Source: Sarea resinae
Lineage: Eukaryota
Direction: 5' to 3'
NCBI GenBank assembly: GCA_026026165.1
Contig: JAPEUD010000043.1
Span: 124,001-188,000 of the forward strand
DNA length: 64,000 nucleotides
Shown: positions 11,218 to 60,449 of the stretch, piece by piece
Layout: each line of letters starts with the position of its first letter
Numbering within the stretch: position 1 is the stretch's first letter
Made by a program: the position numbers and the translations under genes
The notes under the pieces: generated by a model
What the model was told of the DNA's origin: nothing
The model's input: the letters and a program-made list of their open reading frames with translations, nothing else
The model's database searches: none

Positions 11218-14049
11218 TTAGATCATGATATAATCGCCATCCACCCCCTCCATAGCCCTCCGCCATCTGAACGCCTGCTGCCTTCCTGCCGATTCAATAC
11301 TGTGCCCGACGCCCCCGCCACGCACCGTCTCCATGCCCTCGCCATTCCCGTTCCCATTTCCATTCCCGCCAGGCTCACCCCGCCAGACCCTCTCCAAGAC
11401 CCCCAATCCCGCCCCATTGTTCCCAAAACCACTCTCAATCATGATGCCCATACATCTGCGCCTGACGATATCGCGATGGCTCTCCGCCACGCACTCTGTG
11501 CCGGTGAGAAACAGCGGCCAGAGGAGGAACTTATCCACAGGACTCGGAGTCTCGGGCGTCGTGGCAGCGATAGAAGTGATGTGATACAGAGCCTGAGCGA
11601 CGAGGTTTTGAAGATTGGGCCGGCTGGACGGAAGGGACGGGTAGGCGAGACGTTCGGTGTAGAGAAGGGCAGCATAGCGGAATGCTTCGGAGGCGTGGAG
11701 GAGGTCGCGTTGGTGACTGGGCGAGTAGCTGTGATGGTGGTGGTGGGAATGCTGGGAACGATGATGGTGGTGATTATGGGGAAGATGCGGCGAGGGCTGT
11801 GGCGTTGGAGGCGCCTCGAAGGTCCAGTCTTGTAGCGCTTGCCGAACGGCATGCCACTCTTCCCAGAAGCGGAAGCGACTGTCTTCTCCACTGGTGGCGT
11901 TGATATCATCGTCATCATCGAGCGGCGTATTCCAGCCGTTCCCGTCGAGACGACTGTAATTGGGACTATAGCAGCTGCGGGAGCGGGGACCTGCAAGGTT
12001 TTCCGATGCGTTCATGGTAGTGGGAGTAGAAGAATCGCGAGCATAAGAAAAGATGGGACGATTCTGGCTCAGGACATTGAGTCGACCAAGTTTGGCGATG
12101 GTGTTAAAGAGACGGCCATCGCAACCCGTGAGGTGAGCGACTCCTCCTTCAAGATCAAGGAAGCTGACCAGGTCAAGGTAGCCCTTGCGGAGTTCCGGTT
12201 CACGGTCATTGACGGCAGCGGTCATGACCTCTACCCACGTAAAGAAGAACTCGACCCAGCTTCGGAAGCCAGATCGCGGGCCGTCGTCGTCGCTCATATC
12301 TAAAAGCTTCCGAACACCGGCGAACTGAGTTTTGAATTGCGCAATGCCAGTCTCGCAGGTGTGGAACAAACAGAGGATGAGGATGGTCGCGAGGACAGAG
12401 TCGTCCATGGCTAAGGAAGGGTTGGCTAGCTGCTGGTTGAGTAACTGGATTGATGTAGCTTTAAGGTGAGACTCCTCTTGGGCGGAGTCGTCTGAAGCTG
12501 GCGGAGGAGCTTCGACGGCCGCAGCAGCCGCCAGCAACGAGGCCATCTCATCTCCGAGGATCCCAGAAGCGGGAGCATACAGCTTGGACGGCGAAGACAT
12601 GGCATTTTGGTAACGAGCTCCAGTGTTGATCGAAGGTGCGGCCGACATGTTTCCTTCCTCCTGTCGCAGTCTCATTCGGAGATTATTTGCAGCGAGCGCC
12701 CCAATCGCATTTTGAAGGGTCTTGCTCTGCATCGCCAAAGGCAAAACATACATACGATACGGATTTGTCAACCCATCGGAGGAGACCAGGACTGGACAGA
12801 TGGCCTTGTCGTAATAGTCAATGAGATACTGCATGCGAGGCGATCTGCTAGTAATCGACAACGAAGGAAGAAGCTGGGCTATTTGAGTTTCCGCGCTGGA
12901 GGAAGAAGTAGTCGAGGCTGTCGTCTCAGGAGGGTCTTCGTCAGTTAAAGTAGGCTTTGAGGAAGATTGCTTGACAGAGGAATCCCACCCGTAACCAAGT
13001 TGTTCAACATCGTGCGGACTTGGAGCACCCCCGGAAACCTCGTCTTCGAACACTTCACGAGAGAAGTTGTACGAACCTCTCGAATCGGCAGCAGCGAGAT
13101 GATTATGTGGAACATATCCGTAGCTGCTCTGGTCCGAAGCCGCACTCGAAGCCATGCTTCCGCGGGTGATGGGGCAAGACGTTGGCGTCCGACCATGGAA
13201 GACAAGACTATCATTGGGACTCGTCGCCATAGCGTGCGCGGCGTAATACTCATGGTACCCGGGCATGGGGATGTCCATTGGGGGAACGTCGTCAGGTGTG
13301 TGTGGATATTCCACGGGCGAAGGATAGTCGCTGTCACTATAGCCACCTATCGAAGTAGCGGACCCGGCAGAGGAAAGTTCCTCATAGGATCCAGCAATGG
13401 AGGTATGCAGACGTTGCAGTCCATGCCCATGCCAATCGTGGGCTTGCCTTGGGGCCATGACTGGACCGTACCGCGCGGACTGATCGGCCACACCATATGT
13501 TTGCCAATCTGGTGCTGAGTTCGACAGTTGAACAGCGTTAGGCGAAGATGTCGGGTCCATGTTGACAAAGTCATAATTCGTATAAGGTGCGACGGGTGAA
13601 TCCATCTTGATCGGTATGGGGCGAGCTGCCTGTGGCGATAGAGCATTGCCTCCCGACCTCGCATCGGCGGGCTTGGAGGAGCTCGTGGCCGGATTTCTGA
13701 TTTTCTGACTCGGAGCACTGGTTGATGAGGATGTCTTTTTCGGCGCAGCGATGGGCAATGCCATTCCCCGTAACTTTCCACGGCTTGCCACGCCAACGCC
13801 CCACGTCAATTGGGTCTTGTAACCACTGCAGCTCGCCTCGCCCTGGTCAAGGCATTGGGAACAATATGGCCTCCGTCGATCACACTTCCGTCGCTGTTTG
13901 CGGCACGTAAAGCAATCATCGGCAGCACCCGTCGTCGGAGCTCTTCTCCGTCGCTTTCGCGGTGGAGCAGCCGCAACGGCCGCGGCGACAGCAGCATCTC
14001 CCGAAGTCGTCGTTGCAAGGTCAGCCATCTTCGCTGGTGGCGACGGCAT
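11218..14049 (-). CDS. Zn(II)2Cys6 transcription factor with C-terminal fungal-specific TF domain (Acr-2-like type)
   Basis: 943-aa intronless ORF. CFTCRKQRRKCDRRRPYCSQCLDQGEASC binuclear cluster followed by SGYKTQLTWGVGVASRGKLRG. C-terminal YLIDYYDKAICPVLV, SEAFRYAALLY and LLWPLFLTGTEC motifs. Confidence 0.92.
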   Translation of the reverse strand: MPSPPAKMADLATTTSGDAAVAAAVAAAPPRKRRRRAPTTGAADDCFTCRKQRRKCDRRRPYCSQCLDQGEASCSGYKTQLTWGVGVASRGKLRGMALPIAAPKKTSSSTSAPSQKIRNPATSSSKPADARSGGNALSPQAARPIPIKMDSPVAPYTNYDFVNMDPTSSPNAVQLSNSAPDWQTYGVADQSARYGPVMAPRQAHDWHGHGLQRLHTSIAGSYEELSSAGSATSIGGYSDSDYPSPVEYPHTPDDVPPMDIPMPGYHEYYAAHAMATSPNDSLVFHGRTPTSCPITRGSMASSAASDQSSYGYVPHNHLAAADSRGSYNFSREVFEDEVSGGAPSPHDVEQLGYGWDSSVKQSSSKPTLTDEDPPETTASTTSSSSAETQIAQLLPSLSITSRSPRMQYLIDYYDKAICPVLVSSDGLTNPYRMYVLPLAMQSKTLQNAIGALAANNLRMRLRQEEGNMSAAPSINTGARYQNAMSSPSKLYAPASGILGDEMASLLAAAAAVEAPPPASDDSAQEESHLKATSIQLLNQQLANPSLAMDDSVLATILILCLFHTCETGIAQFKTQFAGVRKLLDMSDDDGPRSGFRSWVEFFFTWVEVMTAAVNDREPELRKGYLDLVSFLDLEGGVAHLTGCDGRLFNTIAKLGRLNVLSQNRPIFSYARDSSTPTTMNASENLAGPRSRSCYSPNYSRLDGNGWNTPLDDDDDINATSGEDSRFRFWEEWHAVRQALQDWTFEAPPTPQPSPHLPHNHHHHRSQHSHHHHHSYSPSHQRDLLHASEAFRYAALLYTERLAYPSLPSSRPNLQNLVAQALYHITSIAATTPETPSPVDKFLLWPLFLTGTECVAESHRDIVRRRCMGIMIESGFGNNGAGLGVLERVWRGEPGGNGNGNGNGEGMETVRGGGVGHSIESAGRQQAFRWRRAMEGVDGDYIMI

Positions 14050-14064
14050 TGTGTCTTGTAGCTA

Positions 14065-14082
14065 TCAAGACGGCAGATGCAT
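14065..14082 (-). promoter_or_regulatory. Candidate uORF MHLPS* upstream of the Zn2Cys6 gene
   Basis: ATG CAT CTG CCG TCT TGA at 14082-14065, ending 15 nt before the main ATG at 14049. Confidence 0.55.
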
Positions 14083-14145
14083 GCGCAGGGTAAAAAAACA
14101 GGTCAAGTTGCGGCGCAGGGAAACAGTGGCTATTGGGGCAGCTTT

Positions 14146-14419
14146 CTAGAAGGGATGAGAGAATCGAAGATGGAACAGCAGCTGGTTAGAAATAAGCTTG
14201 GAGAGGTCTGGGCCAGAGACAGTAGATAAGATCAACAGTAGCACCTGCATAGAATCTGCCTGGAAGCTTTTTCGATGATGCGAACCTGGGAGAGAAGGAG
14301 GCAGGGGATCCCATGATCGACATGGAGGCTGCACTTGGCGGACTGAGCACCCTGGAGCCATTTGACTGGAGGGAGGGACCCTAGAACCCTAGGACCCTAG
14401 ATTAGGAAGATAGTCTCAC
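14146..14419 (-). other. Putative 5'-UTR intron of the Zn2Cys6 gene
   Basis: AAG|GTGAGA donor at 14419; TCTAAC branch point; pyrimidine tract; TTCTAG acceptor at 14146. Confidence 0.5.
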
Positions 14420-31200: not shown

Positions 31201-32828
31201 ATTGCTTCGGTCCCTGTCCTCTTCATGTTTGTCTGCGGCTCCAGCCATAACTGCAATCCCAATATTTTGATTGCTCATCAGTGACAGTACGATACCGAGT
31301 GTCTTGCCTTCGTCGGTAAGGAGCACGGCCTGGGGTATGGCTTTCAGCAATCCGCGTATGTTTGGGAGCCAAAAGAGAAGACCTGTGAGTTGTCGTAGAG
31401 ATGAGTCGAAGACTAGAAAAAGATGTATGGGCACGGAGACAATAGACAAGGATTCAGGTCTAAAAATGGAAGGATCCAAACGATTGCATCATGAGCTCTC
31501 CCTAAGTTCGATGCGAGTTCGATACTCGAGAATTGAACGAGCGTATCGATAAGACTTGAAAAACACTTAAACCTCGCCTCTTGCGATTGGTTCTAGTTTT
31601 CTTGCAGATGTCGGCTTCTAAACATTCCGAGAACATTCTCGATAGAAAAATCAATGGACCGAATCGATCAAATATTTTCCTGAAAAGCAATTGATGGCAA
31701 GTCATTCGATCTTGACTAGACCTCCCTTGCTGGGTATAGCTTCTCCCGTGTAAGCCACTTCTGGTATTTTTATACAGCAAAGTCAGAGCAAATAGCATAC
31801 GACCATCCCTTGATAAAGAAGAAATATATGTCAGTCTGCAATATCGGTGGACTGAAGAACTTGTCTACGATAGAAGACAAAAGAATTCGAAGATTCGTCG
31901 GAAATCTGCTAGAGGATGTACAGTTTACTATAGAAGCCTATTTTGCTCTCCAATCCGCCAATGGCGCAAATCTACCGTAGCCATCGATCAACAATCCGCT
32001 AATCAAATGCCGACCTCAACCTCCTGCGTTTTCAATCTTCATCAACGTCTCGAAGCCAACAAGTGTTTGCTGTGGAAATAAGTTGTTTTTACTGTGAATG
32101 TAAGTCGATAATTGTTTGCAATGGGATGCTGAGATTTGCAGGCTGGAATGGTATGCTGATACTCCATGGACAGTGTCTCGGACTCGGGAGTCAAGACGGC
32201 GAACATTCATCGTCCCAGCCCACCACGTTGCAGAATGAGTGCACGAGCTGTGATGAACCTCCGGCCCTAGACTATCTCATATCTTTTCGCACTTTTTCAT
32301 CTATGCGTGTACTGCATATCAAGTCTGTTTTGTTCATCATGTGTGGTATTCTCGGTTGGTAGGGCTGGTGGGGTTGTCAGCCACGCGTGGAATGTTGCCC
32401 ATGCGCATGCCTCATGCCGTTGCCACATTTTCTTATCGAGTGCTGACTTCTACCTGGAATTGATTGCCTCTCTATTTTTTGTTGGCTTGTGCTTGCGCTC
32501 CTGAGGTCATCTTTCTAGAATTCGATATCAGCCATGTGCATACCGAGGCTGGCGGTCTGCATACGCATCAGCGCTGCACGAAAATATCAGCCATCATTGT
32601 CGAGCGCATTCTCTGCGCTCTCTGAGTCTCAGCTCGCTCCGTGGCGGCTGGATAATATTCGCCTTAGTTTGAAAGTGGCTTTATATATTGCTAAGGGCCT
32701 TTGAGGTCGGTTTTTTCAAAGATAGCCTCTTGGTCAACGGTTTTTTACTGCTAATGATCTTAATCTTATGAATTTACGAACTATACTCTAATATAACGAC
32801 ATTAATGACGGCTATGATGAAACAGAAC

Positions 32829-35165
32829 ATGATCTCACGAAACTTGCTTTGCGCCTTTTTCTTCGCATCTTTCGCATCCTCTCATATGGAAATGAGCTAT
32901 CCATACCCCATTCGCAGCAAGTTTGATCCTGAGAATAGTCACATTAACATCGACCACAATATGGTGTCTCCTCTTAAAGCGGACGGTTCCGACTTTCCCT
33001 GCAAAGGCCATCACAAACATGTCTCAAAGCATACGACAGCGACCTATCAAGCTGGATCATCGTACAACATGACCGTCGCCGGAGACGCTATATACGACGT
33101 TCGATCCTGCCAGCTCTCATTATCCTACGACCACGGCGCAACTTGGAATGTCATCCAGTCTTATATCGGCGACTGTCCCAGTCCCTCAAAGTACGACTTC
33201 GCAATTCCGTCTTTCGCGCCTAGTGGGACCGCATTGCTGGCGTGGTCGCGGGTCAGCTTGGCCGCTAGTGATGGGAATTTCTACATGAATTGCGCCCAGG
33301 TCGACATCGTCGCGTCGCCTCCACCAGGTCGGTATCGGAGGAGGGCTGCCGTCGGATCGTCGGCGAATTCTATGGCTGAGCTGCCGAACATGTTCACGGC
33401 GAATCTTGAGAAGAAGAGCACGTGTAGAATGCTCGAGAGAAAGGGCTCAGACGTTGTGAATCCTTCTGCGGCAGCGCCTGTGGACTATGGTTCCGAAAAG
33501 ATGTCGAGTATGCCTGTTGGCATGGAGCTCTGCGTCGGCGACGTGATGGAAGACCCAGCAAGTCTATCGCCGGGGACGGCGACAGCTAGCAGTAGCTTCT
33601 CAACGGCTATAGCTAACACAACAGCAACCTCTTCATCCTCTCCATCTAATCTTCCTATCATCACATCTGGCGCAGTATCTGTAGCCGCTTCCTCCAGCCC
33701 AGGCACCTGGACAAACACAACTACGACCACAGCGACATCGACACTCTACGACGACCCGAACGACGGCGGCGGTGCAGACAATTACGAGAACCTGACCATG
33801 ACATCCACAACCACGGTCGTCGAAACAGTGTACGGGCCCAGTCCAACAGCACCTGCAATCTCCCCCACCACTACCGATCTCATGGATCCCGACTGCGAAT
33901 GCGATCCCCACGCTGACCCTGTAACCATACCGGTCTATACCACCTTCCTCGAGAATCCCGCACAGGCGGCAGACGGAGCCGCTCCCACGCAAACCGTGAC
34001 CATCTCTCTCTTGCTCTCTGATCCGAACCAATCGGCCGAGCTCGAATGGCTTTCGGAAATTGGCATGGCACAGCCGTCATTCTACACCACGAGGTACGAA
34101 ACAGAGACCGAAAACCCCGAGTCCGCTGTTCCCTCATACTCTACCTCGACTTCCTCTTCCGTAGCCTCTGCCACGCCATCGATCGAACACCCCCAAAGGC
34201 TCTACGCGCTGCATTTCGGTGCGTCATCTCCATTGGCTTCCTCGAAGACACCCGCAACAAGCTCTTCATCCTCGCATCTCCGAACAGTATCCGAGACGCG
34301 CACGGTAGTCCACACGGTCACAGAGACGCGAATCAGTACGAGGACGCGATTGTCGAGCTCAGAGACGAAGGTGCCCACAGCCACATCCGTGTCCCACACG
34401 ACCGTCCCGTGGACAGTGCTCGTCCAACCGCTGCCTTCTCTGCCGACATCGTCTCGAAGCCCCACTTCCATCGAAAGAAGCAGCACCAGCTCCCTAGCCT
34501 CGGGGCGATTACCAGCAACGACATCGACGCACCCGCATCCGATGACCACGTCGCGCGGGGTTTCATGGTCGAACTCTTCCTCTTTGTCTTCAATTCATAT
34601 AGCCTTGACAACGGCCTCGCGGTCGGACTCACACCTGAATACGACTAGGAATAGCACGGCAGCATCCACGGCTCATTCGTTCTCAATTCAGCGATCCATA
34701 TCGCCGCCACCGCAGTCAGCGATATCGTCACTGTCGTCACCGTCAAGCAAACCATCCACATCCACACTCACGTCCACATCGACGCCGCCGACCCTGGACC
34801 GCCAAGACGACACTCTTACTACAGCCGACACGGACACCGATACCATCACCGAGACCACGGACACGGACACAATCTCTGATACAGACACCAGTAAAGCCGC
34901 CTCCATCACCACCTCCGATCAACAAGAGACATGCACAGTTGAAGGCGCGCTCCGATGGCGAGCCGACACGGCATCCGTCTCCAGCTCCATTTCGACTCCA
35001 GCGTTTAACGCTTCCTCCAACAACGCTTCCGCCGGCGCATCCACCGCGATAACGCCCAGCCCCAACATCGACACAGACGCCGACACAGCGACAGACACAG
35101 ACACACAAAGCATCACCAACAGAGAATGGCAGCAGTGCTTGCACGGGATCTGGACAGCAATTTGA
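32829..35165 (+). CDS. Secreted AA11-LPMO-like protein (degenerate active site) with long Ser/Thr-rich tail
   Basis: Signal peptide followed by mature N-terminal HMEMSYPYPIRS; SPL..DGSDFPCKG, SCQLSLSYD, FYMNCAQV. More than 500 aa of S/T/P-rich low complexity follows. In-frame ATGs from 32805 are alternative starts. Confidence 0.78.
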   Translation: MISRNLLCAFFFASFASSHMEMSYPYPIRSKFDPENSHINIDHNMVSPLKADGSDFPCKGHHKHVSKHTTATYQAGSSYNMTVAGDAIYDVRSCQLSLSYDHGATWNVIQSYIGDCPSPSKYDFAIPSFAPSGTALLAWSRVSLAASDGNFYMNCAQVDIVASPPPGRYRRRAAVGSSANSMAELPNMFTANLEKKSTCRMLERKGSDVVNPSAAAPVDYGSEKMSSMPVGMELCVGDVMEDPASLSPGTATASSSFSTAIANTTATSSSSPSNLPIITSGAVSVAASSSPGTWTNTTTTTATSTLYDDPNDGGGADNYENLTMTSTTTVVETVYGPSPTAPAISPTTTDLMDPDCECDPHADPVTIPVYTTFLENPAQAADGAAPTQTVTISLLLSDPNQSAELEWLSEIGMAQPSFYTTRYETETENPESAVPSYSTSTSSSVASATPSIEHPQRLYALHFGASSPLASSKTPATSSSSSHLRTVSETRTVVHTVTETRISTRTRLSSSETKVPTATSVSHTTVPWTVLVQPLPSLPTSSRSPTSIERSSTSSLASGRLPATTSTHPHPMTTSRGVSWSNSSSLSSIHIALTTASRSDSHLNTTRNSTAASTAHSFSIQRSISPPPQSAISSLSSPSSKPSTSTLTSTSTPPTLDRQDDTLTTADTDTDTITETTDTDTISDTDTSKAASITTSDQQETCTVEGALRWRADTASVSSSISTPAFNASSNNASAGASTAITPSPNIDTDADTATDTDTQSITNREWQQCLHGIWTAI

Positions 35166-47297: not shown

Positions 47298-50192
47298 CTT
47301 CAGGACTGCGAATGTGATTTAGAAAGTACTCCGGAGTATATGAGGTCAGTGTTGATGGAATGCTGGTGTTCTTTGGGATTAAGGTAGTTGGAGGTGAAGG
47401 GTAGTAATTAATGGTAGGTAGGTGGGTAATTGAACAGGTGTATATATATATAGTGTCACAGAATGAAGTGTTGGATAGAGGGGTCAATGGGGAATTATGC
47501 GGTGGATTGGGGATCAATATATAATCAAGGTCCATAGAGACCGTCCCGTGATGCACGTTGTTCCCCATGCATGGGCGGGGTACTGTCGAAGCCATCATGG
47601 TTGATACGGTACATAGACTCGGACAAGAATGGCTCAAGCATCCAGGCCGGGAGATCAGAAAAGACAGGCAAGCCAAGAAGCCACGCGTGCTCCGAATGAG
47701 CTGATTCGCTCTCCAGATCCATCATGGGAACGGAGTGCCAACAAGCACTGGGGGTTCTCTACCATTGAGAGGTAGGGGAGGTAGGGGAGGGATGGAGGGA
47801 TGGATGGTGTGGAATTTGGCTTCTTCCGTGGAAGCCGCACCGGTGATGCCGTCGGGCCTCGTTTCATTGGCAACAAGTGATGGTATCGGCGGCAAAGGGA
47901 GACGAGCCACGGCACCGAGGGTCTCCAGCTGTCCTCTCTGTCACTACCTGGGCTTACTGCTAGCATTACTATGTAGTTGGGGGGGTGGTTAATGGAGGTG
48001 GCAAGTGTGTGTTCGCGGCTTCCTCGATCTGGAAAGTCCTGAGGATGGGATTGCCAGAATAACTTGGTTCCACGAGAAGTGACAGTGTGGGTGAGGCAGC
48101 CAGAGGACAGCCAGCGAGAGCCAGAGAGAGCCAGCGAGAGCCAGGGAGAAAGAGCCAGAGTGAGATCGAATGAAAGCGGGATGGCGGGCCCTGGCGTTTG
48201 TTGGGCACGTGCGCCATGAGAATAGTTCCAAGCTGATGGTTCAGACCTTCCTTCGGAGTACTGTCTCCCAAGCTGCCTGCCCACCTTACTCGACCAGGCC
48301 GTAGTGTCCTCCGCCACAGCCGAAGCAGAGGAATGCGGAGATCAAACCAAAGAGTACATCCCGCTTATGTGCGACTACCGCGCCGACCACTGCATCACTA
48401 ACGACCAAGGCAAGACTAACGACTCACTCGCGATTACACGATTGCCATACCCCAACAATTGCAGCATTTCCTGACTTACTGATTCCAGGAACCCGGTCAG
48501 CCCATGGCCGGACCGGAGAAGTCAATTGAGGAGTGGAAGGCCACCTGCCACCCTGTCCTGATTGTTGTTCAGCAGGTGTGATGTCTTGACCTTTTTTCTT
48601 TTCTTCTGCCCGCTGTGTTCCGCGTCCTCTCGGCCCTTCGGTCTCTCGTGCCCCCTCAGCAGACTTCCAGACCGGTGTGTCGTGCATGTTTGTTTGGGGC
48701 TATCGACCTACTCGAGCACCCAACGATGAGGTAGGTTTGTACGGAGTACTCCGTACTCCCCGAGGCGTCCAGAATGCCAGGGCACAAGGGAAAGGATACA
48801 TCAGGGCAGGTACGCAGTCGAGTGGTACATCTAGATCAGCCGTCAAAAGTATACAAGGATCAAGTCTCTAGCTTCTTACATGGGTATCAATCGATACTCT
48901 TCGTTTCGCAACTGGTAAATGGTTTCCTTCTGGAGCAGGCACTGACAAGTTACAGAGTACAGCACAGCAACCTACGATGTCGGGCATCACCACTATTGAC
49001 AGTCGCCGCCGAACGAAGGAGGGTTTAGGTAAGCGTCCACGAGGCTTACGGATACACACTTTTGACAGTCGTGATCCAATCGAGGCATCCGACATTCATC
49101 ACGATCTCTGGCTCGAATAGCCATATGTGGGTTGGGCCCACGCCGTGGGATGGAACGTACTTCGGAGTAGCGGTCGAGATACCGACGACAGCAGACAGAG
49201 AGATGGCCGATCAAGAAAAAAAAGGGCCCCTGGCCATCCGGTTCCCCTATCCCCTTGGCCTAGTTTAGTGCCGTCCAGTATTCTTAGACACGCCTTAGTC
49301 AATCGTTCGCCCATAGTGCCGGCGTCGAAGCATTACGCGTGATTGTCGATCTATTTGGCCGATGGGTTGACCTCCAGGGCTCCCCCGTTGACTTCAGGTT
49401 GTTGACCCCCGCGGCTGCCCGTCGCTTAACGTACGGATAGATGGAGTTATGATTATCCGTTCCATTTACCTAAGCCACCTCCACTGCACCTCCAGCTACA
49501 CCCGGCTCACCAGGGAACTCCCCGAATTCTCTAATCTCCATGCCCGCTCTGGATGCCGATTCTCCCAAAATAGCGAATCCGATGTTCCCGGGGACAGCAG
49601 CTTTGCCGACATCAGATCAAAACTGACGGAAGGACGGGCATCAATATAATTTGACGGGAACCTCGGAAACGTGTCACTAAAATGCAAAGTCGTCATGGAC
49701 ATCTCACAGGATACAACATTTGAGAAATACAGTACTCTCGCCGATGCTCATCATTTCATCATGACAGGCACATAGAGTCGGAACATGGAGGGTATGCATA
49801 CTCGGAGTACTCCGATACTTTCCCACCTATCCTCCCAGCACACTACCATTCCAACGTTATTTCTAAAGGCGTCTTTTTTGTACCATCGAGGTCAAACTCC
49901 CGGAAGAACAATAGGCTATATTATCGCGGCTTATTTGTTCTCGCTGGCCACCGGGAAGGAGCTAGAACACTGCTTGTTTTCTAATATGGAATGCATGGAT
50001 CGCAAAGACAAAATCACAAAGGGCGAGGCAAATTCGCTTTGTTGTCTGAGCTACCCAAGAGACCGATGTCTATCTAATCAGATAAGCCCCAACCTGCATC
50101 GATGCCAGTGGCGCCCTTCTTCCCCTTTTTCCCTTTCCTCTTGCAGTGCGCAACAGCGTCATTTTTTCCAGGCCTTTCACCGATGTCTGAGG

Positions 50193-52362
50193 TCACTCCT
50201 GGCCATTAGCATGAATGCGATTGCTGGGTCTGGTTTGTGCAAACACACCCGTGGACACTCTGGAAGCATACGCCTTGCACGTAGCGTCGCTCTGATGGAG
50301 TATTTCAAGCTTCTTCTGGAGGTCTTCTCGCTGGTTTTGCCTCTCTTCAGACTCCCCTGCGACCTTCGCTACAAGTTCGGCGTCCATATTGAGGACCCCC
50401 GTTGGGTCGAACACAGAGGAAAGACCGTTGATGAACTCAGACTCAAGGACTTGAATGGGAACGTTATCGATGAAGACCTTCATCGAAACCTAGCATATTT
50501 TGTCAGCGCAGGCAACAGAGGATTACAAGCTTTTCAACCTTATAATAAGCATTCATGTGATTGAGTGTAGCCTTGGCAGCGATACGGTCCATATCAGGAT
50601 CCTCTCCCGGTACAAGGAGACTCGTAATCCAGTCAGTATCCACTTCCGTTAACTTTCCACGTTGGAATGCAATTTTCAGCTTGCGTCTTATCTCTATTCT
50701 GCGATCTTCGTTCTCTTGCTTCCTCACATTGTCGGTGAGGTAATGGTTATAAGTAATTGGATGGCCGCTGAGGTCCTTCATCAGACTGGCCAGCTTTTCG
50801 TTGGCCTTCTCTATCCTCAGATCCCATATCGGATCAATGATAAATTGAAACAAGGCATCGCAAACGTATCCGTCTGCAAGGTAGCGCACAGCCAACTCAA
50901 GAAACGCATGTACTTTCTTCCACACCGTGACGACATGCTCTTTTGCAATTCCTTCCCAAGGAGAGGCGTACTCGCGAAAGAGCTCCCCAACTAACAGTGG
51001 ATTCAAGGTTCCTGGAAGTTCCTTTCCTCGACTGCGTTGGATTAGAAGAATGACCCTCTCAATGGCGCGTGCTCTAGTCAGGCACCGAGGCCCTGTTGGC
51101 TCTTCAACAATCTGCCACCGGCTCCCCTCGACGCGAAGTCTTTTCTCAAAAGATGTGCTATCATTCTGGACAAAGGCACGAACTCGCTTCAGCGAATTGT
51201 CTGGATCCATGGCATCGCCAAAAAAAGCTTCCTTATAATTCCCTTCGGACGCTGCGTCGCAAAGAGATTTGAAACGCTGACTCAAGTCAATCAAGAATAG
51301 TCTTTGCTCCGCTTCGGTTTTGCGGCTTCTCCCTAATCTGTCCAGGTCTGCCTGAGCCTTTTCAATGCTGGCCTGAATATCTTGAACAAGGTGGGGCAGT
51401 TCCTTGCCGATTTGGTCGAACAGTACAGAACTCAAACGGTCCCGGAGCGCTCTAATTCCCACAGTCGATGGCTCTATTAAACTCCAATTGCTGTGGGTGA
51501 AGAACTCCTCTTCCTTCTTGTCTCGCAGAGAGATGTCGCCGCTCTGCTCGTCGTAGCCGAGGTTCCTGACGACATGCCATCCCAACTTGAAATGAACATC
51601 TTGGTTTCGAGCAAGATTCAAGAAGGCGGTTTCACTGTCGGAGTTGTGGTGCAGCGTGTCCGGCTTGGTAATGATACCTAGAGTGCGACATCCCTCCGTA
51701 TCAATCATGCGAGCTCGCTTCAGTATAATCTGATTTGCGTAGTCGTTCCTTGCTGACACTACGGCTAGGATGATGCTTCTTGACTTTTTCATGTAAGACT
51801 GGACCAGCTTCTTCACAAGCTCGACGTCTGCCTCTGTTTGCAGCTTGTTTTCCGAATGGATCAATCCGGGGAGGTCCACGATAGTCAGCTGCGGCATCTT
51901 TGGTCCTGTGACTTCTATTCGGAGGATATCGGTAGAGAAAGCATTGCCAGTTGGCCCCAGGCCCATTGCCTCTTTGGCCTGAGTTATAAGATCTGCCAAG
52001 GTCTCAAGAGTGTCCAAACTATGTCTGAAGTTGAGAAGTAGTAGACGGTCAGAGTCAGATCTGCCTTGGCCAGGAATGATTGAGACCGTTGCCTCAATGC
52101 CGCCATCTCGTCGAAGGATCACCTCTGTCGCAAATCGAGTACAGAGATGATCTTTCTTGGGAAATGGGATCCCAGAAATAGCCTCGAGGACGGAGCTTTT
52201 TCCGCTGGACTGATCGCCGCAGACGACGAGCTGGGGGAGAGGTAACAGAGCGCTGAGACCCTGAGCTCTCAAGGCGTCGACGACATTAAGTAATTCTTGC
52301 TGTTTGGAAGATTGCAGAGATTTGAGATTTTCCAGACTATAATCGTGCGCAGTTGACCCCAT
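50193..52362 (-). CDS. Mx/dynamin-related large GTPase (about 706 aa)
   Basis: Exons 50539-52362 and 50193-50489. G1 GDQSSGKS, G2 CTRF, G3 DLPG, G4 TKPD, LGWHVVRN, RGKELPG. Splicing restores the GED-like AYYK|VSMKVFIDNV. Confidence 0.92.
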
Positions 52363-53138
52363 AGTGGAGGAGATAATGGAAAATACTTGGTGTGATTAAG
52401 GGGATCAGCTTAGGTTGAAAAAGCGTCTGCGAACATCTCCCTCTTAAACAGCAGAGGGCTCTATGAGTACTATTTCATCTTCGCTACCATAAATTTCTCC
52501 GCATCGATTCAAGGGAGCTTCCTAGTGGCAAGCCAACATTGGAAGGCTTGTGATTACCAGTCAATTGGTCTATATCTGTCAACTTCAGAGAACTCGCCCT
52601 ACATTCAGAGTCTCTGCTATGATACCGCATCCCAAGGTATTACTGATGATAGCTGTCAGAGCTCTATTCCTATTTGGGTGCTATCAACATCGCTATGTCG
52701 TAAGTCCTTGATATGGAATAGCGTGGCCCAAATTCGTGCCAGGGCGGGGAATCAAGGTACAACTTGAGGCATTTGCATGGCTACCGGGCCTTTTCAAGAT
52801 GCAGATCCATGGATGCAGGATACACCTGCAGGGCCGCACCGCCACGATCGCGCAGATATCAATTGTTTCCTAACCATTATTATCTGGTCGTCGCCGTCTT
52901 TTGAAATCTGTAGGTAGGCATCATAGCGCACTTCAGATCCTCTGTCTTGCAACGTTAGATCATATCCAGCATGTGACATGACGTCCAGCTCAAAGTCAGA
53001 AGAACAAAACAGATCCGGCCCTCCACTGCCCCAGGTCATTTGAGGTTACGTTTTACAATCTGAGGATTATTTGTCCACTACAGCATGAGAAAAAGAGGGT
53101 ATACGTGAATTATCAACGAGTGAGGAAAGGGTTGCGCA

Positions 53139-55451
53139 ATGGCGACAGCAGAACACCTTCGTCATGTGCAAGAGATCGTCCGCTACACTTTTGTCGAGCC
53201 TGGATACTTGAAGCAAGCGCTCACCGCTGCTGGTGCGGAGGAAGAGAATCATGACGGCAACAGAAAACTGGCTCAAGTGGGAGATCTCTTGATCAAACTG
53301 GTTTTGCTCATCAAATCATTCTTTGCAGGCGCTTCACGAGGTAGGCATCCATCTATACCGAAGAGCTGCATCTTCGCTTACTTATCACTCCGCAGGGGAC
53401 GCCAATGATATATTGCAAACTGCTGCCAGCCGGAAGCGCCGCGCCACAGTAGCAAAGGCCACTCATATTGATGCCTGCATCAGATGTAGTCCGTGGCAAA
53501 GTGGCCAATCTACGCCGCCTCTTGCAGTGCTGAATCTGGCAATATCCGCTATCGTTGGCGCTGCATGGCATGATTCCGGACAAAGCTTTGCCATAGTGAG
53601 CCAGGTCGTCCAGCAGCTAGGGTGAGTCCGAACCAGTAGGTCTATCACTGTCTGTCTAGGCTATTAATTCAATAGACTAGTCTCGATCCGCAGGATCATA
53701 CTTATGTGGACCCTAACGTGATATCTCCTAATCAAAATATACCTGTTCCTTCTGACCAGTCGATTTCTTTCGACGAACGAGAAACTACTCCAAGCTGCGC
53801 AGTCCGTGCTCCCATTTCACCGTTTACCTGGAATGCTGGACTCTTTAGTCAAAGTTCTTCCGATGACGCGACCTTGTTCAACAGGAATGGTTCCCCTGGT
53901 GTTCAAAGGGTGGATATCATTTCCTCCCAGGAACTAAACAGCGACACAACAGGTGCTACGGACCTTGAAATTTTGGAATTGACGCCCAATCTGGAAGTGC
54001 CACTCCGAGAAGTTTCCTTTCCTACAAGCGAAGAGCACTTTCCTAGTAGTGTCGTGTGGCAACGGGAAACAGGAGATGATCAAGGCGTTTATTCTGACAA
54101 GTTTGGTGGAGCTTTGTTAGAGAATGAGCATCTAGAGGATATCGTTGGTATCCAAAGTGATCCTATACTGGCTTCTCATCTAGCACACCGCCGGTCAAAC
54201 AAGCAGTCGGATCTAAACCAGATCAGGCCCGAAGAAACAACCCTTGATTATAATATTGGCAGTAACGCGATCGACGAAGTAATCGACCGAGCATTGAGTG
54301 GAATCGAAGAAATAGGGGTCCCCGCTGCTCCTTGCCCTCAGAACGCGATAGCGATGACCAGAGGTTGTGCGGTCAAGAGAAAACCGAGTTCAAATTCAAG
54401 CACTGGTTCGAAGAGGGCACGTCGTCGCAATTACCGTACGGGTTTGCGTGAGGAGACAGACGCTTTGCTTGGAAAACATTGTTTTCTCGAGAGTGTGAAA
54501 TGCCAGAATCTAGGACTACCCTGCCCAGAACAGACCTTCAACCTTTCAAGAATGAGAAATTTTCTCTCAGATCCTTGTGTCGAGGGATACAAGCTTGCAC
54601 TTACTGACTTCTCTCTCGAGATCGCCAGCTCAGGGTCTCTGGCCCTTCTACAAGACATCATCCAGGCGTCTCGACACAGCCCAATGAGCTACTCACGGGA
54701 TACTGGATTCGCCGTTTCGAATGTCGAAAGGCTGAAGGCGATTGGGCGTCTTGACAAAGGCATTGCTTACTCTGGTCTTCTGCGGAGATATCATGTTTTG
54801 CAACTATACAGGGATAGCCGGGGTTCCTCATCAAGAGTAGTCGATGGCTTTGTCATGGACACAAATGACATCATCTCAAGAACGGCTAAGAGAAGCAATG
54901 GTAATCCTTTGAACAACAGCCATGCCGAAATCACGAAGTCGTTAATGCAGGAGGTTCATCCTGAACTTCAGGGCGGAACATCTGTATATGAACAGAAGTA
55001 TCGTAAAATTAAAGGCCTGCAAAAGCTGGGGCAGCGCCTCGACTTGCTGACAACTAGGTTTGGAGATGGCATAATTGGTCTATTACCACCAAACACTAAT
55101 CTGGTCTCTGGAAGCCTAGCATATGTACTCGCAGACAATACGTATGTTGAGTCTACGGGCGCCTTCGTTCCAGAGCTAATTATTTCTAGAATCTCGCCGC
55201 TACCAGACAATATTTTCACTGAATTCATCAAACTGCTCGACCAGTGCCAGGGCGACATGCTACGTAAATTCAGTGACGCTGCCAGAGTTATTCTAGACTA
55301 CATTTTCTACGGTCAAGTCGACGGCCCTAGACACTTTCCTATCGAGCAGATTGAACGAGCGCAAATCGAAAATCAGCCAAAAGGGTCTCCAAGGCTACTA
55401 GAGCTTCTAGCTCCTATTACCAGCAACGACCCATACTCAGCAACGAGTTGA
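53139..55451 (+). CDS. RNase III-like domain fused to a linker and an uncharacterised helical C-terminal domain (about 716 aa)
   Basis: Exons 53139-53340, 53396-53621, 53681-55141 and 55190-55451 join in frame. N-terminal VQEIVRYTF...LKQALTAAG...DGNRKLAQVGD...AIVGAAWHDS matches the RNase III fold pattern. Confidence 0.72.
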
Positions 55452-56731
55452 TAGTGGTATCGAAGCTCGTCAATGACCTCGAATGGTATACGGCATACAA
55501 TGATCTCGCCGACTAGGTCTGGGACAGCGAAAGCAACGATCAAAGGTCAGTCCAGTCGATCAGGAATCCTCGCATACGGCCTAGAGATTAGCGACGTGCT
55601 ATGACCAACGAACTGTACTGCATCGAAGACTTGTCCGAAGAGCACAATCTCGATGATATCCCTAATAGTACCACGGGTTATGGCTCCTCAATTATATGGT
55701 TGAACATAATAATAAATTCCTGCATACGCGGAAACACTTTGATCAGGGTTTTCAAATTGGATTCGCAGGCCTAATTAGTATAGCATGCCACCCCTTCCAA
55801 TGTATTTGGACAACACGGGACTAAGGAGTCCAGACTGTTCAGCCAATCAAGGACCTAATGCCCACGCAATCATCGAACGGATAAGGCCGAGATCACTACT
55901 AATCCTCGAAATGATCACTCGGATCAAAAGTTAGATCGCACGTGGCAAGCGACCCTGGGATATAATGCAACGTCCACAAGATATCAGCGCTCAAGAACTT
56001 CATGGAACTCGACGGCTATTCGATTCGCCAAGGAAGAAGGCACGTGTACCAGTGTTACCCTCAGTAGGCAGCAGTGTGATGGCTGGTGGTGAGGTTCACG
56101 CGCAATAAGTGGTTCATGCGGAAAAGGATATGGATACAAAGGCTGTAGTAGATGATGCGACGCTTGCCTCATATATGCTCTTGATCTATCACTTATCAAG
56201 AAATAAGCCAGCTCCGGCAGGATCTGAAGCTTCTGGAATCAAACGCAATAATCATATGAAGCTTGAAGATACGTAATAATGTTGTACAAGTCCAATTTGA
56301 AAGCAGCAAAGCACACGAAACACAAATAGTCGAACATTGATTGTCGTCAATGTAAGGCCGATATAGACCGAGTCTAAGCCATACATTAATAATTGTTGAC
56401 AGTCGCTGTGGAAGTCAAAGTAGTAACGTCATCATTCTCGCGAACATCTTGACAGCCCAAGCAATATAAACAATAGCCCATCTGCATATGTTATCATATT
56501 CAACAATTCCATCGTGCAGCTCCTTCTTTGAAGAAATTAAAGCAATTGCGTTCAAAGCCCGTATAATTACGGACATCCATGATATTGATGACATAGCTAG
56601 CAACCTCTGCTTGCGTGCTTGCCTTGCGCACGGCGCGAGAACCCCACAGCTCGCGCTTGCTTCCTTATCAGGTCCCCGCCCCTCACCCCCCTCCTCAATC
56701 TCCAGGCTCCGCGGCACAAATAGGCAAGAAG

Positions 56732-58224
56732 ATGGGCGCGGCCAACTCAAGCACAGCTGCTGGAGCAGTCGAAGCCAGCGCCACGGCGCCGCCGGACCGC
56801 TTTGAAGGATTCATGATCGAGTCGCAGGAGCAATGGAGCACGTTTACGAGAAAACAGGTGCGCACGCTTCTCAATCCCTCTCTCTGTACCTCTTCAAATA
56901 AACACCCCGGCACTCACCATTCAAAACCTAGTTCAAAGTCAAGCCATTCGGCGACCACGACATCGACGTCCGCATCGACACCTGCGGCGTCTGCGGCAGC
57001 GACATCCACACCATCACCGGCGGCTGGGGCGATTGCCACCTGCCGCTGTGCCCCGGCCACGAGGTCATCGGACATGCGATTCGCGTGGGCCCGAAGGTGA
57101 AGACGGTCAAGGTCGGCGATCGCGTCGGCGTCGGGGCCCAGATCTGGTCGTGTCTCGAGTGCCGGAATTGCAAGTCCGATAACGAGAATTATTGCCCGCA
57201 TCAAGTCGGTGGGTTCATTTTGTTCGCATGTTTATCTGCTTGCTGTCCAACACCCTCACCCTACCTACCCCTGCCCACCCCCGTGGGTTTCTTTGATTAC
57301 TATTCTCATGGCGGGGAAGAAGTAGCCATCGTAGTAAAACCCCAGTAGTGACTCCGCCCCCAAGTTCAAAGACTCTATCTACGCAAGTCTAGCTAATCAA
57401 CCAGCACTTCCGAATATCCAGCCACCTACAACTCGCCCTACCCAGACGGCACGATCTCGCAAGGCGGGTACGCCAGCCACATGCGCGCGCACGAATACTT
57501 CACATTCCCGATCCCGGCCGCGCTCTCGTCGACGACCGCGGCGCCGCTGCTCTGCGCGGGCATCACGGTCTACAGCCCCCTCGTGCGGGCGGGAGTCGGG
57601 CCCGGCAAGAAGGTGGCCGTGGTCGGCATCGGCGGGCTGGGCCACTACGCGCTGCTGCTCTCAAAGGCGCTGGGCGCGGACACGTACGCGATCAGCCATA
57701 CGGCGGACAAGGAGGCGCTGGCGCTGTCGCTGGGCGCCAAGGCTTTCATCTGCACGGCCACCGACGACGACGGCAAGGACGGCGACGATGAGGACAAGGA
57801 CGGCGAGGACGGCAGCAAGAGGACGCCCAAGTGGCAGGAGCCGTGGGCCGGCACCTTCGATCTGGTCCTCAACGCCTCGGACGCCAACCCGGCCCTCGAC
57901 GTCCCCGCCTACCTTTCCACGCTGGTCGTGAACGGCACCTTCCACCACGTCGGCATCCCGGACCAGGCGGCTCGGCCGGCCCCACTGGGCGCGGGCGCGT
58001 ACATGGGCGGCGGCTGGAAGGTCGGCGCGAGCCATATCGGCAGCCGGAGGGAGATGCTCGAGATGCTGCAGCTGGTGAGCCGGAAGGGCATCGAGGGCTT
58101 GGTGGAAGAGGTGGCGGTCGGCGAGGACGGGTGCAGGGAGGCTGTCGAGAGGGTCAGGCGGGGCGATGCGAGGTTCCGGGTCGTGCTTACGGGCTTTGCG
58201 GATGCGTTTCCTGATCGGAAATGA
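56732..58224 (+). CDS. NADP-dependent cinnamyl-alcohol-dehydrogenase-like Zn ADH (Adh6/Adh7-like)
   Basis: Exons 56732-56857, 56932-about 57208, 57422-58224. Motifs: CGVCGSDIH, GHE, GDRVGVGAQ, CLECRNC..DNENYC, APLLCAGITVYSPL, GIGGLGH. Confidence 0.93.
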
Positions 58225-58537
58225 GGCTGGCTTTTTTGGTTTTTTCTTTTGGTTTACTATGCATAGAGAGAGAGGGAGAAAGGGGTAGGGAGGTAGACAG
58301 GCAGACAACCACTCGGCAGACAGACAAGCAGATCTTGAACATGACTTAGACTTGATTAGTTGGTAAATTCCAAGTGGATCAAATGCAGACAGCTTCATTC
58401 TCAACATCACAGGTCCGATGGACAGATGGACAGATAGGGCAAAGCGACCAGTGCCCAGTAGCCAACAATCAGTAGCCTTCCTCCAGCGCCCACCCAGCCC
58501 AGAGACCGTAGAGCCCCCCCTCACCACCAGGATCTAG

Positions 58538-60449
58538 CTAGTATTTCACGACGACCGTCTTCGTCTGCGTATACTCGGCCAGCACGGCCCTGCCATTCTC
58601 GCGTCCGCCCCCGCTGCCCTTCCAGCCGCCAAACGGCACGCTCGGATGCATGAAGAAGCCATTATTCACCGTGACGGTGCCGGCCTCGAGGCGATCGGCC
58701 ACGCGCATGGCGACGCCGAGATCGCGCGTGTACACGGAGGCGCCGAGGCCGTACTCGGAGTCGTTGGCGCGGCGCACGACGTCGGCCTCGGCGACGAACG
58801 TGTCGACGACGGCCACGGGCCCGAAGATCTCGCGAGCCAGCACGGGCGCGTCGGGCCGCGGCCGGAAGAACAGCGTCGGCTGCACGTAGCAGCCGCGGGT
58901 TTTTCCGGCCACCAGGTGCGGCGGCGGCGGGGCGGCGCCGCCGGTGATGAGTTCGGCCTCGGCTTTGCCGGCTTCGATGTGCGCGAGGACCGCGTCGCGC
59001 TGGCGGGCGTGGTAGAGTGGGGATGAGGCGGTGGTGGGGTCCAAGGGGTCGGCGCCGAGGTTCGCAGAGTGGGTTTCCAGGACGGCCTTGAGGCGCGCGA
59101 GGAATGCGGCGGCAATGGTCTCGTGCACGAAGATGCGCGTTCCGAGGACGCAGCCCTGGCCGTTGAGCACGAGGAAGGCCGAGGCGTTGGCGATGGCGAG
59201 GTCGAGGTCGGCGTCCGGGAAGACGATGATGGGGGTTTTGCCGCCGAGCTCGAGCGTCACGCTCTTGACGTTGCTCTGGGTGGCGGCGATCTGGATTTTC
59301 TTGCCCACGGCGACGGAGCCCGTGAAGGAGATCTTGCGGATCTTAGGGTGGGAGGAGAGGGCAGCGCCAGCGGAGGCGGTGCCGACGAGGATGTTGAGGA
59401 CGCCCGGGGGGATGCCGGCGGCCGTGGCGAGGGAGCCGAGGAGAAGGGTCGAAAAGGGGTTGGTTTCGGCGGCTTTGGAGATCATCACGTTGCCTGTTGC
59501 TAGGGCGGGGGCGGCTTTCATGGCAAAGGTTATCATGGGGCTGTTGTAAGCGTTGATGCCGGCGCAGATGCCGTAGGGGTAGTGTTTGACCATCTGTTGC
59601 GTACGCGGTTAGTTGGAATTTGAGACTCTTGCCTGGGAAAAGGAGTAATAGGTGGCGGCGCGAGCGGAATGTTGGATTATTTACCCGGAGTATGCCATCT
59701 TCGGATGGAGTCACGTCGCCCTCAAACTTGTCGATATAGCCCGCAAAGTCTGGACGGCGACATCAGTACATTTGCCTGTTGGGTTTCAAGTAATAGGTGA
59801 GATGGCCTGGCCTACATGTAAAGAGATCCGCCGCAGTCTTCGGCTCATACATGCCCGAGAATGTAATCTCTTTTCCCACGAGAATTGACTCGAGATAGCC
59901 CAGTTGCTGCGCATTTTCCAGGATGAGCTGTGCATAACGGAGAAGAAGATCACGTCGCTCGTCCTGGGTGGTGATTCAGTATAGAAGCTTGCAAAGTATG
60001 GGCTGAAGATGATATACAAGCGGCAAGCCTTTCCAGACAGGCAACGCTTTCTCAGCAGACTGAACGGCGACATCAACGTCTTCAGCATTTGCGCACTGGA
60101 CCTCTGACACGGTATAAAGTCAATCATTTCTTGCATCTCAAACGCGGTATACGGCTGGCTGGCTGTGCTCACCATCAGAGATAAGAGAGTCATCCACAGC
60201 CGAGCGTAAAGTCAGACGCTCGCGACCCTTCGAATCGACAAATTGACCGTGGATATATGGCTTTGTGGGCAGAGGATATTTAAAGGTTCGATCGGAGGAA
60301 TGCCGCGATTGGGACGATAGAGCACCGCTAATCAGGTGGGGCCATTGGGATGGGCCATGAATGATTGACCGTGGCGGGGTGAAAAACGACCTGGCCGGTC
60401 TTCGTAAAAACGAGGTAGAGGTTCGGACTCGTTCCAATGAAGTGGCCAT
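58538..60449 (-). CDS. NAD(P)-dependent aldehyde dehydrogenase, possibly mitochondrially targeted
   Basis: Five exons splice in frame. ISFTGS, LELGGK (general-base Glu), NGQGC (catalytic Cys), EIFGPV, PFGGWKGSG. Arg/Ser-rich N-terminus. Confidence 0.92.

Follow-up and report, generated by a model that had tools for sequence, protein, structure and literature searches.

A divergent gene pair in Sarea resinae

The window, a 64,000-nucleotide stretch of the Sarea resinae genome, holds two real, intact genes that diverge across a 776-bp spacer (52363-53138), exactly where a preliminary description of this DNA had placed it. The minus-strand gene (50193-52362) encodes a predicted MxF-type dynamin GTPase of 707 aa and runs from an ATG at 52362 through exon 1 (52362-50539), an intron (50538-50490) and exon 2 (50489-50193). 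Its C-terminal end is unsettled, because the NCBI model (P0161, 733 aa) diverges from ours at the intron and the C-terminus. The plus-strand gene, hereafter the partner, comprises four exons (53139-53340, 53396-53621, 53681-55141 and 55190-55451), and its 716-aa product is identical to a database protein labelled Sarea resinae (P0006). Exons 1-2 (53139-53621, with an intron at 53341-53395) encode an RNase III-fold domain (aa 1-143) that is predicted to be catalytically dead; an acidic linker (53681-54374, ~aa 144-370; net charge -24, pLDDT <50), a basic NLS-like patch (54375-54437, ~aa 375-395) and an all-helical C-terminal domain (54411-55451, with an intron at 55142-55189 and the precomputed assignment PF28402) follow. 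At the predicted acceptor of intron 2 the AG nearest the branch site would break the reading frame, and the next one has to be used; this splicing is backed by the recurrence of the RNase III-helical fusion in 44 of 155 proteins scanned.

Base composition bears out the earlier remark that both genes are weaker in GC3 than the nearby ADH and ALDH exons (0.535 in GTPase exon 1 and 0.449 in partner exon 3, against 0.89 and 0.88). The two genes are among the three lowest of 14 ORFs measured, though ADH and ALDH are themselves outliers and the remaining 10 ORFs span 0.46-0.77. The block had also been said to lack microsatellites and, by eye, terminal repeats. Accordingly, 50137-57112 is the longest array-free gap among the tandem arrays listed, and a repeat search around the pair gave chance-level matches only, none of them convincing. 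The spacer and the DNA on either side of the pair each occur once in the genome, and the spacer may act as a shared promoter.

The GTPase as a fungal Mx-like dynamin

By its sequence, the GTPase is assigned to the Mx-like dynamins of fungi (MxF), of which the Sarea genome has about seven. All four G motifs are intact (G1 GDQSSGKS at aa 49, G2 CTRF at aa 74, G3 DLPG at aa 163 and G4 TKPD at aa 232), Pfam Dynamin_N and Dynamin_M are matched, the stalk is present, and no PH or transmembrane family was matched in Pfam. The architecture first proposed therefore stands for the G domain, the stalk and the missing PH and transmembrane segments; its GED was not reached at E 0.01 by the Pfam family, and exon 2 is probably the GED by position and conservation. 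An Effector_1 match to the same exon (E 0.02) was dismissed as coiled-coil noise.

Ranked by sequence against the PDB, the GTPase places Mx2/Mx1 at the top (E 2e-42 to 4e-30), 16 orders of E ahead of Vps1 (3e-26), with others below. A tree built with animal Mx left out sets it outside the Mgm1/Vps1/Dnm1-like group, whose three housekeeping-like loci probably deserve these labels, which were given by motif. Ranking and tree agree with the initial judgement that the protein is Mx-like and unlike Vps1/Dnm1. The genome has 10 dynamin loci, 7 of which lie outside the housekeeping group, one of these (C53) on an unsure long branch. MxF genes at large are very numerous, with at least 4990 homologs. 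They form a described group, closest to animal Mx, for which the available part of the report gives no function or partner (Langley et al. 2025, PMC11789081).

A predicted pseudo-RNase III family

Relatives of the partner make up a large family in ascomycetes, with 552 clusters at 50% identity, of which our literature searches found no description. Its first 143 residues superpose on bacterial RNase III (TM to target ~0.8, rmsd 2.1-2.4 A; model pLDDT ~90-98 over aa 1-140), which, with the recurrent fusion, vindicates its first reading as an RNase III-like fusion gene. The preliminary description had overlooked the loss of catalytic acids in this domain. The four catalytic columns read A45, D49, L115 and S118, so that one of four acids is kept (D49), and family members carry acids there in 0/38, 10/38, 0/45 and 1/45 rows, never two per row; among complete rows, 27 of 36 have no catalytic acid and 9 have one. 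Partner exon 1 has a dN/dS of 0.11-0.17 in four pairs. By these alignments, the catalytic acids are lost family-wide, yet the domain is under purifying selection.

No dsrm match was found in the partner, and its linker is disordered. Active RNase III classes other than Mini-III have a dsRBD; because the partner's domain comes without one, its dsRNA binding is only putative. PDB titles include RNase III E110K/E110Q mutants complexed with dsRNA. Searched against the PDB (37 sequences, E up to 1), the family profile found Drosha, bacterial RNase III and Dicer, and no mitoribosomal chains. The mitochondrial ribosome contains inactive RNase III folds, mL44 and mL57; an origin from these, raised by a weak RM44 match in one member (P0007), is disfavoured by profile matches to Drosha, RNase III and Dicer only. 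Relatives were found in none of 58 candidate stretches in viral_contigs and none of 54 candidates in prokaryotic genomes, and PADLOC and NCBIfam searches gave weak P-loop and RNase III matches only. The A. fumigatus family member P0020 is present in many strain assemblies, and no tie to the family was found for AFUA_3G03050 ('RNAse III').

Of 125 family proteins scored, 97 have a similar basic cluster where the NLS-like patch lies, and it may serve as a nuclear localization signal. The C-terminal domain bears the motifs GNP and FGxGILGLLP, has a net charge of +14 over aa 371-610 and is modelled confidently (pTM 0.82). A fold search among 48,161 chains gave a best Z of 4.2 over 40 residues, Foldseek gave no match at E 0.001 in viral and PDB libraries, and the ESM Atlas gave no feature match; together these results prove neither a new fold nor absence. 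Elsewhere the same domain is fused to JmjC, whose H-x-E...H motif is intact (the HHalign comparison gave a probability of 97.8 over 241 columns).

Recurrent, loose linkage to dynamins and other neighbours

Neighbourhoods of the partner family were compared at 11 metagenome loci, which represent 4 independent groups. An MxF gene stands tail-to-tail with the family gene, 0.4-1.2 kb downstream, at 4 of the 11, where about 0.16% would be expected within 3 kb from the MxF density of the Sarea resinae genome. These four loci make up one of the independent groups, with copies 88-95% alike and differing, partly AT-rich flanks, and their MxF genes belong to two subclades other than that of the Sarea GTPase. 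The other three groups have no dynamin (two of them on short contigs), and none of the 9 other dynamin loci of the Sarea genome has a partner within ~9 kb. Other neighbours include a Dicer-like gene (L025), a DEDDh exonuclease, a deaminase and an RBR ligase, with the domains OTT_1508, IBR and DUF3638/DUF6606 and the JmjC fusion.

The linkage between MxF and the partner is thus recurrent, loose and non-orthologous. Much of the original proposal of an accessory defence pair holds: the family is patchy, with multi-copy relatives by AT-rich DNA, MxF genes recur near it, and the neighbourhood is defence-like. A fixed, co-regulated head-to-head pair is not supported by the comparison, since neither orientation nor dynamin clade is conserved across the metagenome loci, most groups have no dynamin, and the dynamin can degenerate next to a partner that remains open, as at L030, where it is riddled with stops beside an open long exon of the family gene.

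Starship cargo offers a similar assortment. In the available part of Table S5 of PMC12153272, ~24 kb of the A. fumigatus Starship Janus-h2 hold a dynamin, DUF6606/3638, an Upf1-like helicase, an RdRP and an RNase III-domain gene, and the element also carries NLRs and BTB; the available part of the main text makes no mention of RNAi, RdRP or NLR. Among the rows listed, 0/6 accessions for the Janus-h2 RNase III gene matched the partner family, to which it is likened by annotation only. The Sarea genome has 5 DUF3435 captain matches (C28, C35, C104), none on the contig of the locus (C82). Mobility can only be inferred here, because captain and terminal repeats are missing and the flanks are single copy.

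A captain-less relic of an RNA-defence gene pool?

The reading we favour, with roughly even credence, is that the pair is a two-gene, captain-less relic of a shuffled, Starship-type pool of RNA-defence genes, in which a dsRNA binder that does not cut and an effector of Mx type serve one defence without being an obligate pair. Such a pool would reshuffle MxF dynamins, the pseudo-RNase III family, extra Dicer and RdRP genes, DUF3638, RBR ligases and deaminases. The GTPase would oligomerise GTP-dependently on viral nucleoprotein or replication membranes, like animal Mx; the partner would dimerise via its RNase III fold and bind but not cleave dsRNA, and its helical domain, which is basic and probably nuclear, might pass either this RNA or the corresponding locus on to the silencing machinery. 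Both proteins would act in parallel in one defence, with no need for contact. Against this counts that one A. flavus dynamin fell, rather than rose, with a partitivirus. We put forward as a speculation, on balance improbable, that filamentous fungi possess mobile antiviral islands of bacterial kind, in which a family of dead RNase III dsRNA sensors can be combined with interchangeable Mx-type GTPases, Dicer or RdRP, giving an Mx pathway without interferon.

A serious rival, although we think it unlikely, is selfish anti-silencing: the dead RNase III would hide dsRNA from Dicer and thereby shield the mobile element that carries it, with the dynamin as a passenger. Because the C-terminal domain is also fused to JmjC, the module may carry heads that counter silencing at the chromatin and RNA levels, and the widespread NLS-like patch is consistent with this, as is an A. 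parasiticus Starship in which the captain is directly followed by an RNase III family gene, likened by annotation in the available rows (PMC11162782 Table S7). However, the Dicer-like gene of L025 and the RdRP of Janus-h2 are pro-silencing neighbours, the Sarea gene is single copy, intact and far from any captain, and DNA or chromatin binding is only putative.

Distinctly unlikely is a dedicated pair transcribed from one bidirectional promoter, with the dead RNase III as the sensor of viral dsRNA and the direct activator of the neighbouring MxF. The head-to-head arrangement in Sarea suits it, the family adjoins three different MxF subclades, and a fourth may exist, as P0037 and P0200 both lie on 14,279-bp Logan contigs (1 match in 123 x 62 lengths against 0.11 expected); at L022 the 3' end of the family gene (400 bp) is duplicated, and a second dynamin stands behind this copy. 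The variable orientation and dynamin clade, the decayed dynamin of L030, the lack of any dynamin within 10 kb at L023/L024 and the NLS-like patch on the partner all speak against it. Least credible is that these are unrelated accessory genes meeting only in shared plastic genome regions: MxF genes are abundant, tables of Starship cargo contain many dynamin rows (102 and 283 word occurrences), neighbours differ between loci and the nearest Halenospora dynamin and family member lie on separate contigs, but two unrelated fungi each have the family gene directly beside a different dynamin, less than 1.2 kb away, and this and the recurrence of RNA-silencing neighbours argue otherwise.

MxF proteins have been proposed as ancient antiviral factors in the available part of the report (Langley et al. 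2025, PMC11789081), and the literature accessible to us reports no fungal MxF with a tested antiviral function. A pseudo-RNase III family beside MxF, Dicer and RdRP offers a guilt-by-association handle, comparable to bacterial defence islands, and makes two questions testable: do fungi restrict viruses through Mx-type proteins, and does Starship cargo include genes for RNA defence or for countering it?

Comparison with known systems

With animal MxA/MxB, the GTPase aligns through the G domain and the start of the stalk over ~360 aa (E 2e-42), whereas its C-terminal half has no sequence match and its host, a fungus, has no interferon system. The partner family resembles mL44/mL57 in keeping an RNase III fold without nuclease chemistry and differs in being patchy and accessory, not core. 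It shares fold and dimer-helix signature with bacterial RNase III, the Drosha/Dicer domains and Cryptococcus Cai1, an antiviral protein that, in the available part of its description, carries a dsRBD and cleaves dsRNA (bioRxiv 10.64898/2026.09.15.751652); in contrast to these, it has lost its catalytic acids family-wide, has no dsRBD and is fused to an unrelated helical domain. As in the accessible part of PMC11789081, the dynamin is nearest animal Mx, has no PH domain and is multi-copy within a genome that has its Vps1/Dnm1/Mgm1-like genes once each; that part reports no RNase III-like linkage, and our GTPase is not placed in MxF1 or MxF2. Unlike Janus-h2, the Sarea locus has no captain or element boundary, yet the listed cargo of that Starship (PMC12153272) draws on the same pool of neighbours as the partner family.

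Genomic setting of the gene pair

The MxF-type (fungal Mx-like) dynamin gene (52362-50193, minus strand, one intron, 707 aa) and its partner, the pseudo-RNase III fusion gene (53139-55451, plus strand, three introns, 716 aa), lie where the preliminary description placed them, separated by a 776-bp spacer, and the pair is real, not an artefact. The partner protein matches P0006, a database entry labelled Sarea resinae, exactly; this record probably comes from the same genome and adds no independent support. The block had been called microsatellite-poor, and 50137-57112 is indeed the longest stretch free of the tandem arrays listed; no terminal repeats had been seen by eye, and checking around the pair revealed none that were convincing. 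The flanks are single-copy, with zinc-binding dehydrogenases and an aldehyde dehydrogenase as neighbours, and no DUF3435 captain gene of Starship elements was found on this contig. The proposed weak GC3 bias survives in part: the two genes (0.535 and 0.449) are two of the three lowest among 14 ORFs, but the contrasting ADH (0.89) and ALDH (0.88) are themselves outliers among the window ORFs.

Three further features were recorded. ADH and ALDH (56732-59608), whose GC3 of ~0.88-0.89 is far higher than that of the remaining window, are possibly a separately acquired cluster. A 797-aa ORF at 32772-35165 (minus strand; GC3 low, 0.46) begins with a signal-like segment, is Cys-rich in its N-terminal part and ends in a long Ser/Thr-rich tail. 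Elsewhere in the Sarea resinae genome, captain matches with internal stops, reflecting introns or decay, occur at five loci (L033-L037) on contigs C28, C35 and C104.

The GTPase belongs with fungal Mx-like dynamins

The GTPase matches Dynamin_N and Dynamin_M with intact G1-G4 motifs, and its supposed dissimilarity to Vps1 and Dnm1 held up: Mx2 and Mx1 fill the top 9 places among 43 matched solved sequences (E 2e-42 to 4e-30), followed by Vps1 (3e-26). The Sarea resinae genome contains 10 dynamin loci. In a tree of 35 rows (11 loci and 24 of the 120 listed homologs), three loci group as Mgm1-, Vps1- and Dnm1-like, labels assigned in this analysis, and the window GTPase falls in a separate, well-supported clade apart from them; the locus on contig C53 sits on an unsure long branch. 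This placement is consistent with the MxF group, reported at zero to five copies and called uncharacterised (PMC11789081). The GTPase has at least 4990 homologs at E 1e-50 or better and, taken alone, is a further member of an already known group. Another MxF gene, at L047:3765-9899 (contig C100 of the same genome), is tail-to-tail with an F-box-like gene and a large BTB-containing gene, which we take to be sacsin-like.

The partner family retains an RNase III fold

At 50% identity the partner family falls into 552 clusters, the best 150 of which were examined; named members are from Aspergillus, Penicillium, Paecilomyces, Botrytis, Halenospora, Pseudogymnoascus, Peltula, Sarcosagium and Glonium. 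Both domains are present in 44 of 155 scanned proteins, many of the others being partial gene calls. The N domain model (pLDDT about 90-98) matches bacterial RNase III with a TM to target of 0.8. An alignment to Campylobacter RNase III (47 rows, gaps set aside) shows acids at the four catalytic columns in 0/38, 10/38, 0/45 and 1/45 rows; 27 of the 36 complete rows lack them entirely, and two never occur in one row. Despite the missing acids, exon 1 gives dN/dS of 0.11-0.17 (4 pairs, 68 codons), with 0.03-0.60 in 5 pairs for the C domain and 0-0.77 for the linker, values from small samples that RIP may distort. Alignment and model together show a conserved RNase III fold predicted to be without catalysis.

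With a median pI of 8.8 over 35 rows, the N domain is mildly basic, and no dsRBD was found in the partner. Beyond the N domain come an acidic, disordered linker, a basic patch (97/125 proteins) and an all-helical, basic C-terminal domain (precomputed PF28402, not in local Pfam; pTM 0.82). At metagenome locus L023 the latter domain is fused to JmjC (probability 97.8; 11899-14415, minus strand, intact H-x-E...H motif), tail-to-tail with the pseudo-RNase III gene; none of the 4 JmjC matches in the Sarea resinae genome carries this fusion.

Linkage at other loci is loose and recurrent

A metagenome scan yielded 11 loci of the family in four independent groups. Group 1 (L022, L029, L030, L031) carries cassette copies 88-95% alike, in the order IBR ligase, AAA-HAD-UPRTase, small gene, family gene and MxF gene, the last being tail-to-tail with the family gene at 0.4-1.2 kb. 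The preliminary expectation of co-occurring homologs is thus borne out as adjacency, but not as orientation, and the slot holds two different dynamins, both outside the clade of the window GTPase. At L030 many stops interrupt the dynamin, and the long exon of the family gene is open. L022:10844-20523 has two different MxF genes, each after a copy of the family gene 3' end (404 bp, 84% alike), which looks like cassette exchange by recombination. The IBR/RING ligase, AAA-HAD-UPRTase fusion and small unknown gene form a multi-copy block (L022:1642-8218; L029:2-835; L030:3-1433), at whose edge a DEDDh exonuclease or OTT_1508 deaminase was seen.

Group 2 (L023, L024) combines DUF6606/DUF3638 and the JmjC fusion; a dynamin is absent from the surrounding 10 kb, and the divergent neighbour in this group is a homolog of a gene lying between the two L022 dynamins. 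Group 3 (L025, L026, L032) consists of short contigs and includes, at L025:4302-5908 (minus strand), a Dicer-like gene that has two RNase III domains and spans several frames or introns; it is tail-to-tail with the family gene, about 1.2 kb downstream. The group 4 loci (L027, L028) are short and have an AT-rich flank. One more dynamin and family member both lie on 14,279-bp contigs (0.11 matches expected), which is suggestive only. Together these loci show a loose, recurrent association of the family with MxF and RNA-silencing genes.

A candidate RNA-defence island

Both genes are intact and of accessory type, one an Mx-like GTPase, and we give an even chance to their acting in parallel within a mobile RNA-defence island. 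Both would derive from the Starship gene pool; the GTPase would act by GTP-driven Mx-type restriction, and the partner, probably targeted to the nucleus, may bind dsRNA as a dimer without cleavage, by analogy with E110K/E110Q dsRNA complexes. The partner might instead be an anti-silencing factor and the dynamin a passenger, which we consider unlikely. The dedicated sensor/effector pair originally proposed has the group 1 adjacency in its favour, but no copy of the partner lies within about 9 kb of the other 9 Sarea resinae dynamin loci, and in Halenospora the closest dynamin is on a different contig from the closest family member; a fixed pair is not supported, and this reading is quite improbable. 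Mere co-residence of two genes, set against the recurrent linkage, is very improbable.

What appears new is a dead RNase III fusion family repeatedly paired with MxF and Dicer genes, and possibly with those for RdRP, candidate accessory immune cargo that is directly testable. The literature searched, mostly outside subscription journals, preprint supplements and full Starship tables, yielded no publication on this family or its MxF pairing.

Comparison with Starship cargo and known antiviral genes

A segment of about 24 kb in the A. fumigatus Starship Janus-h2 includes genes for an RdRP and an Upf1-like helicase alongside a dynamin, DUF6606/DUF3638, an AAA protein and an RNase III-domain gene; NLRs and a patatin occur elsewhere on the element (PMC12153272 Table S5, 53 of 67 rows). 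RdRP recurs, with the 19 listed of its 22 rows all from Janus-h2, and a Janus variant has Dicer fragments; the main text does not discuss this RNA-gene cluster (PMC12153272). P0020 is a clear family member from A. fumigatus, but 0/6 accessions tried matched among the table rows listed, so the Janus-h2 RNase III-domain gene is a candidate member only. Supplement rows of PMC11162782 name 'dynamin' at least 102 times and 'Ribonuclease III' at least twice.

With partitivirus, the A. flavus dynamin AFLA_042270 and its neighbours fall, not rise, the dynamin 15- to 990-fold; it lies a few locus tags from two candidates in the authors' loose 18-gene 'Dicer' list (PMC10372822). The surrounding cluster AFLA_042240-042300 (dynamin, P-loop protein), adjoining these two candidates, is strongly lowered in partitivirus-carrying isolates (PMC10372822 Tables S5-S7). 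A fungal RNase III reported to restrict a mycovirus is active and bears a dsRBD (bioRxiv 10.64898/2026.09.15.751652), whereas the partner family has lost its catalytic acids and lacks that domain.
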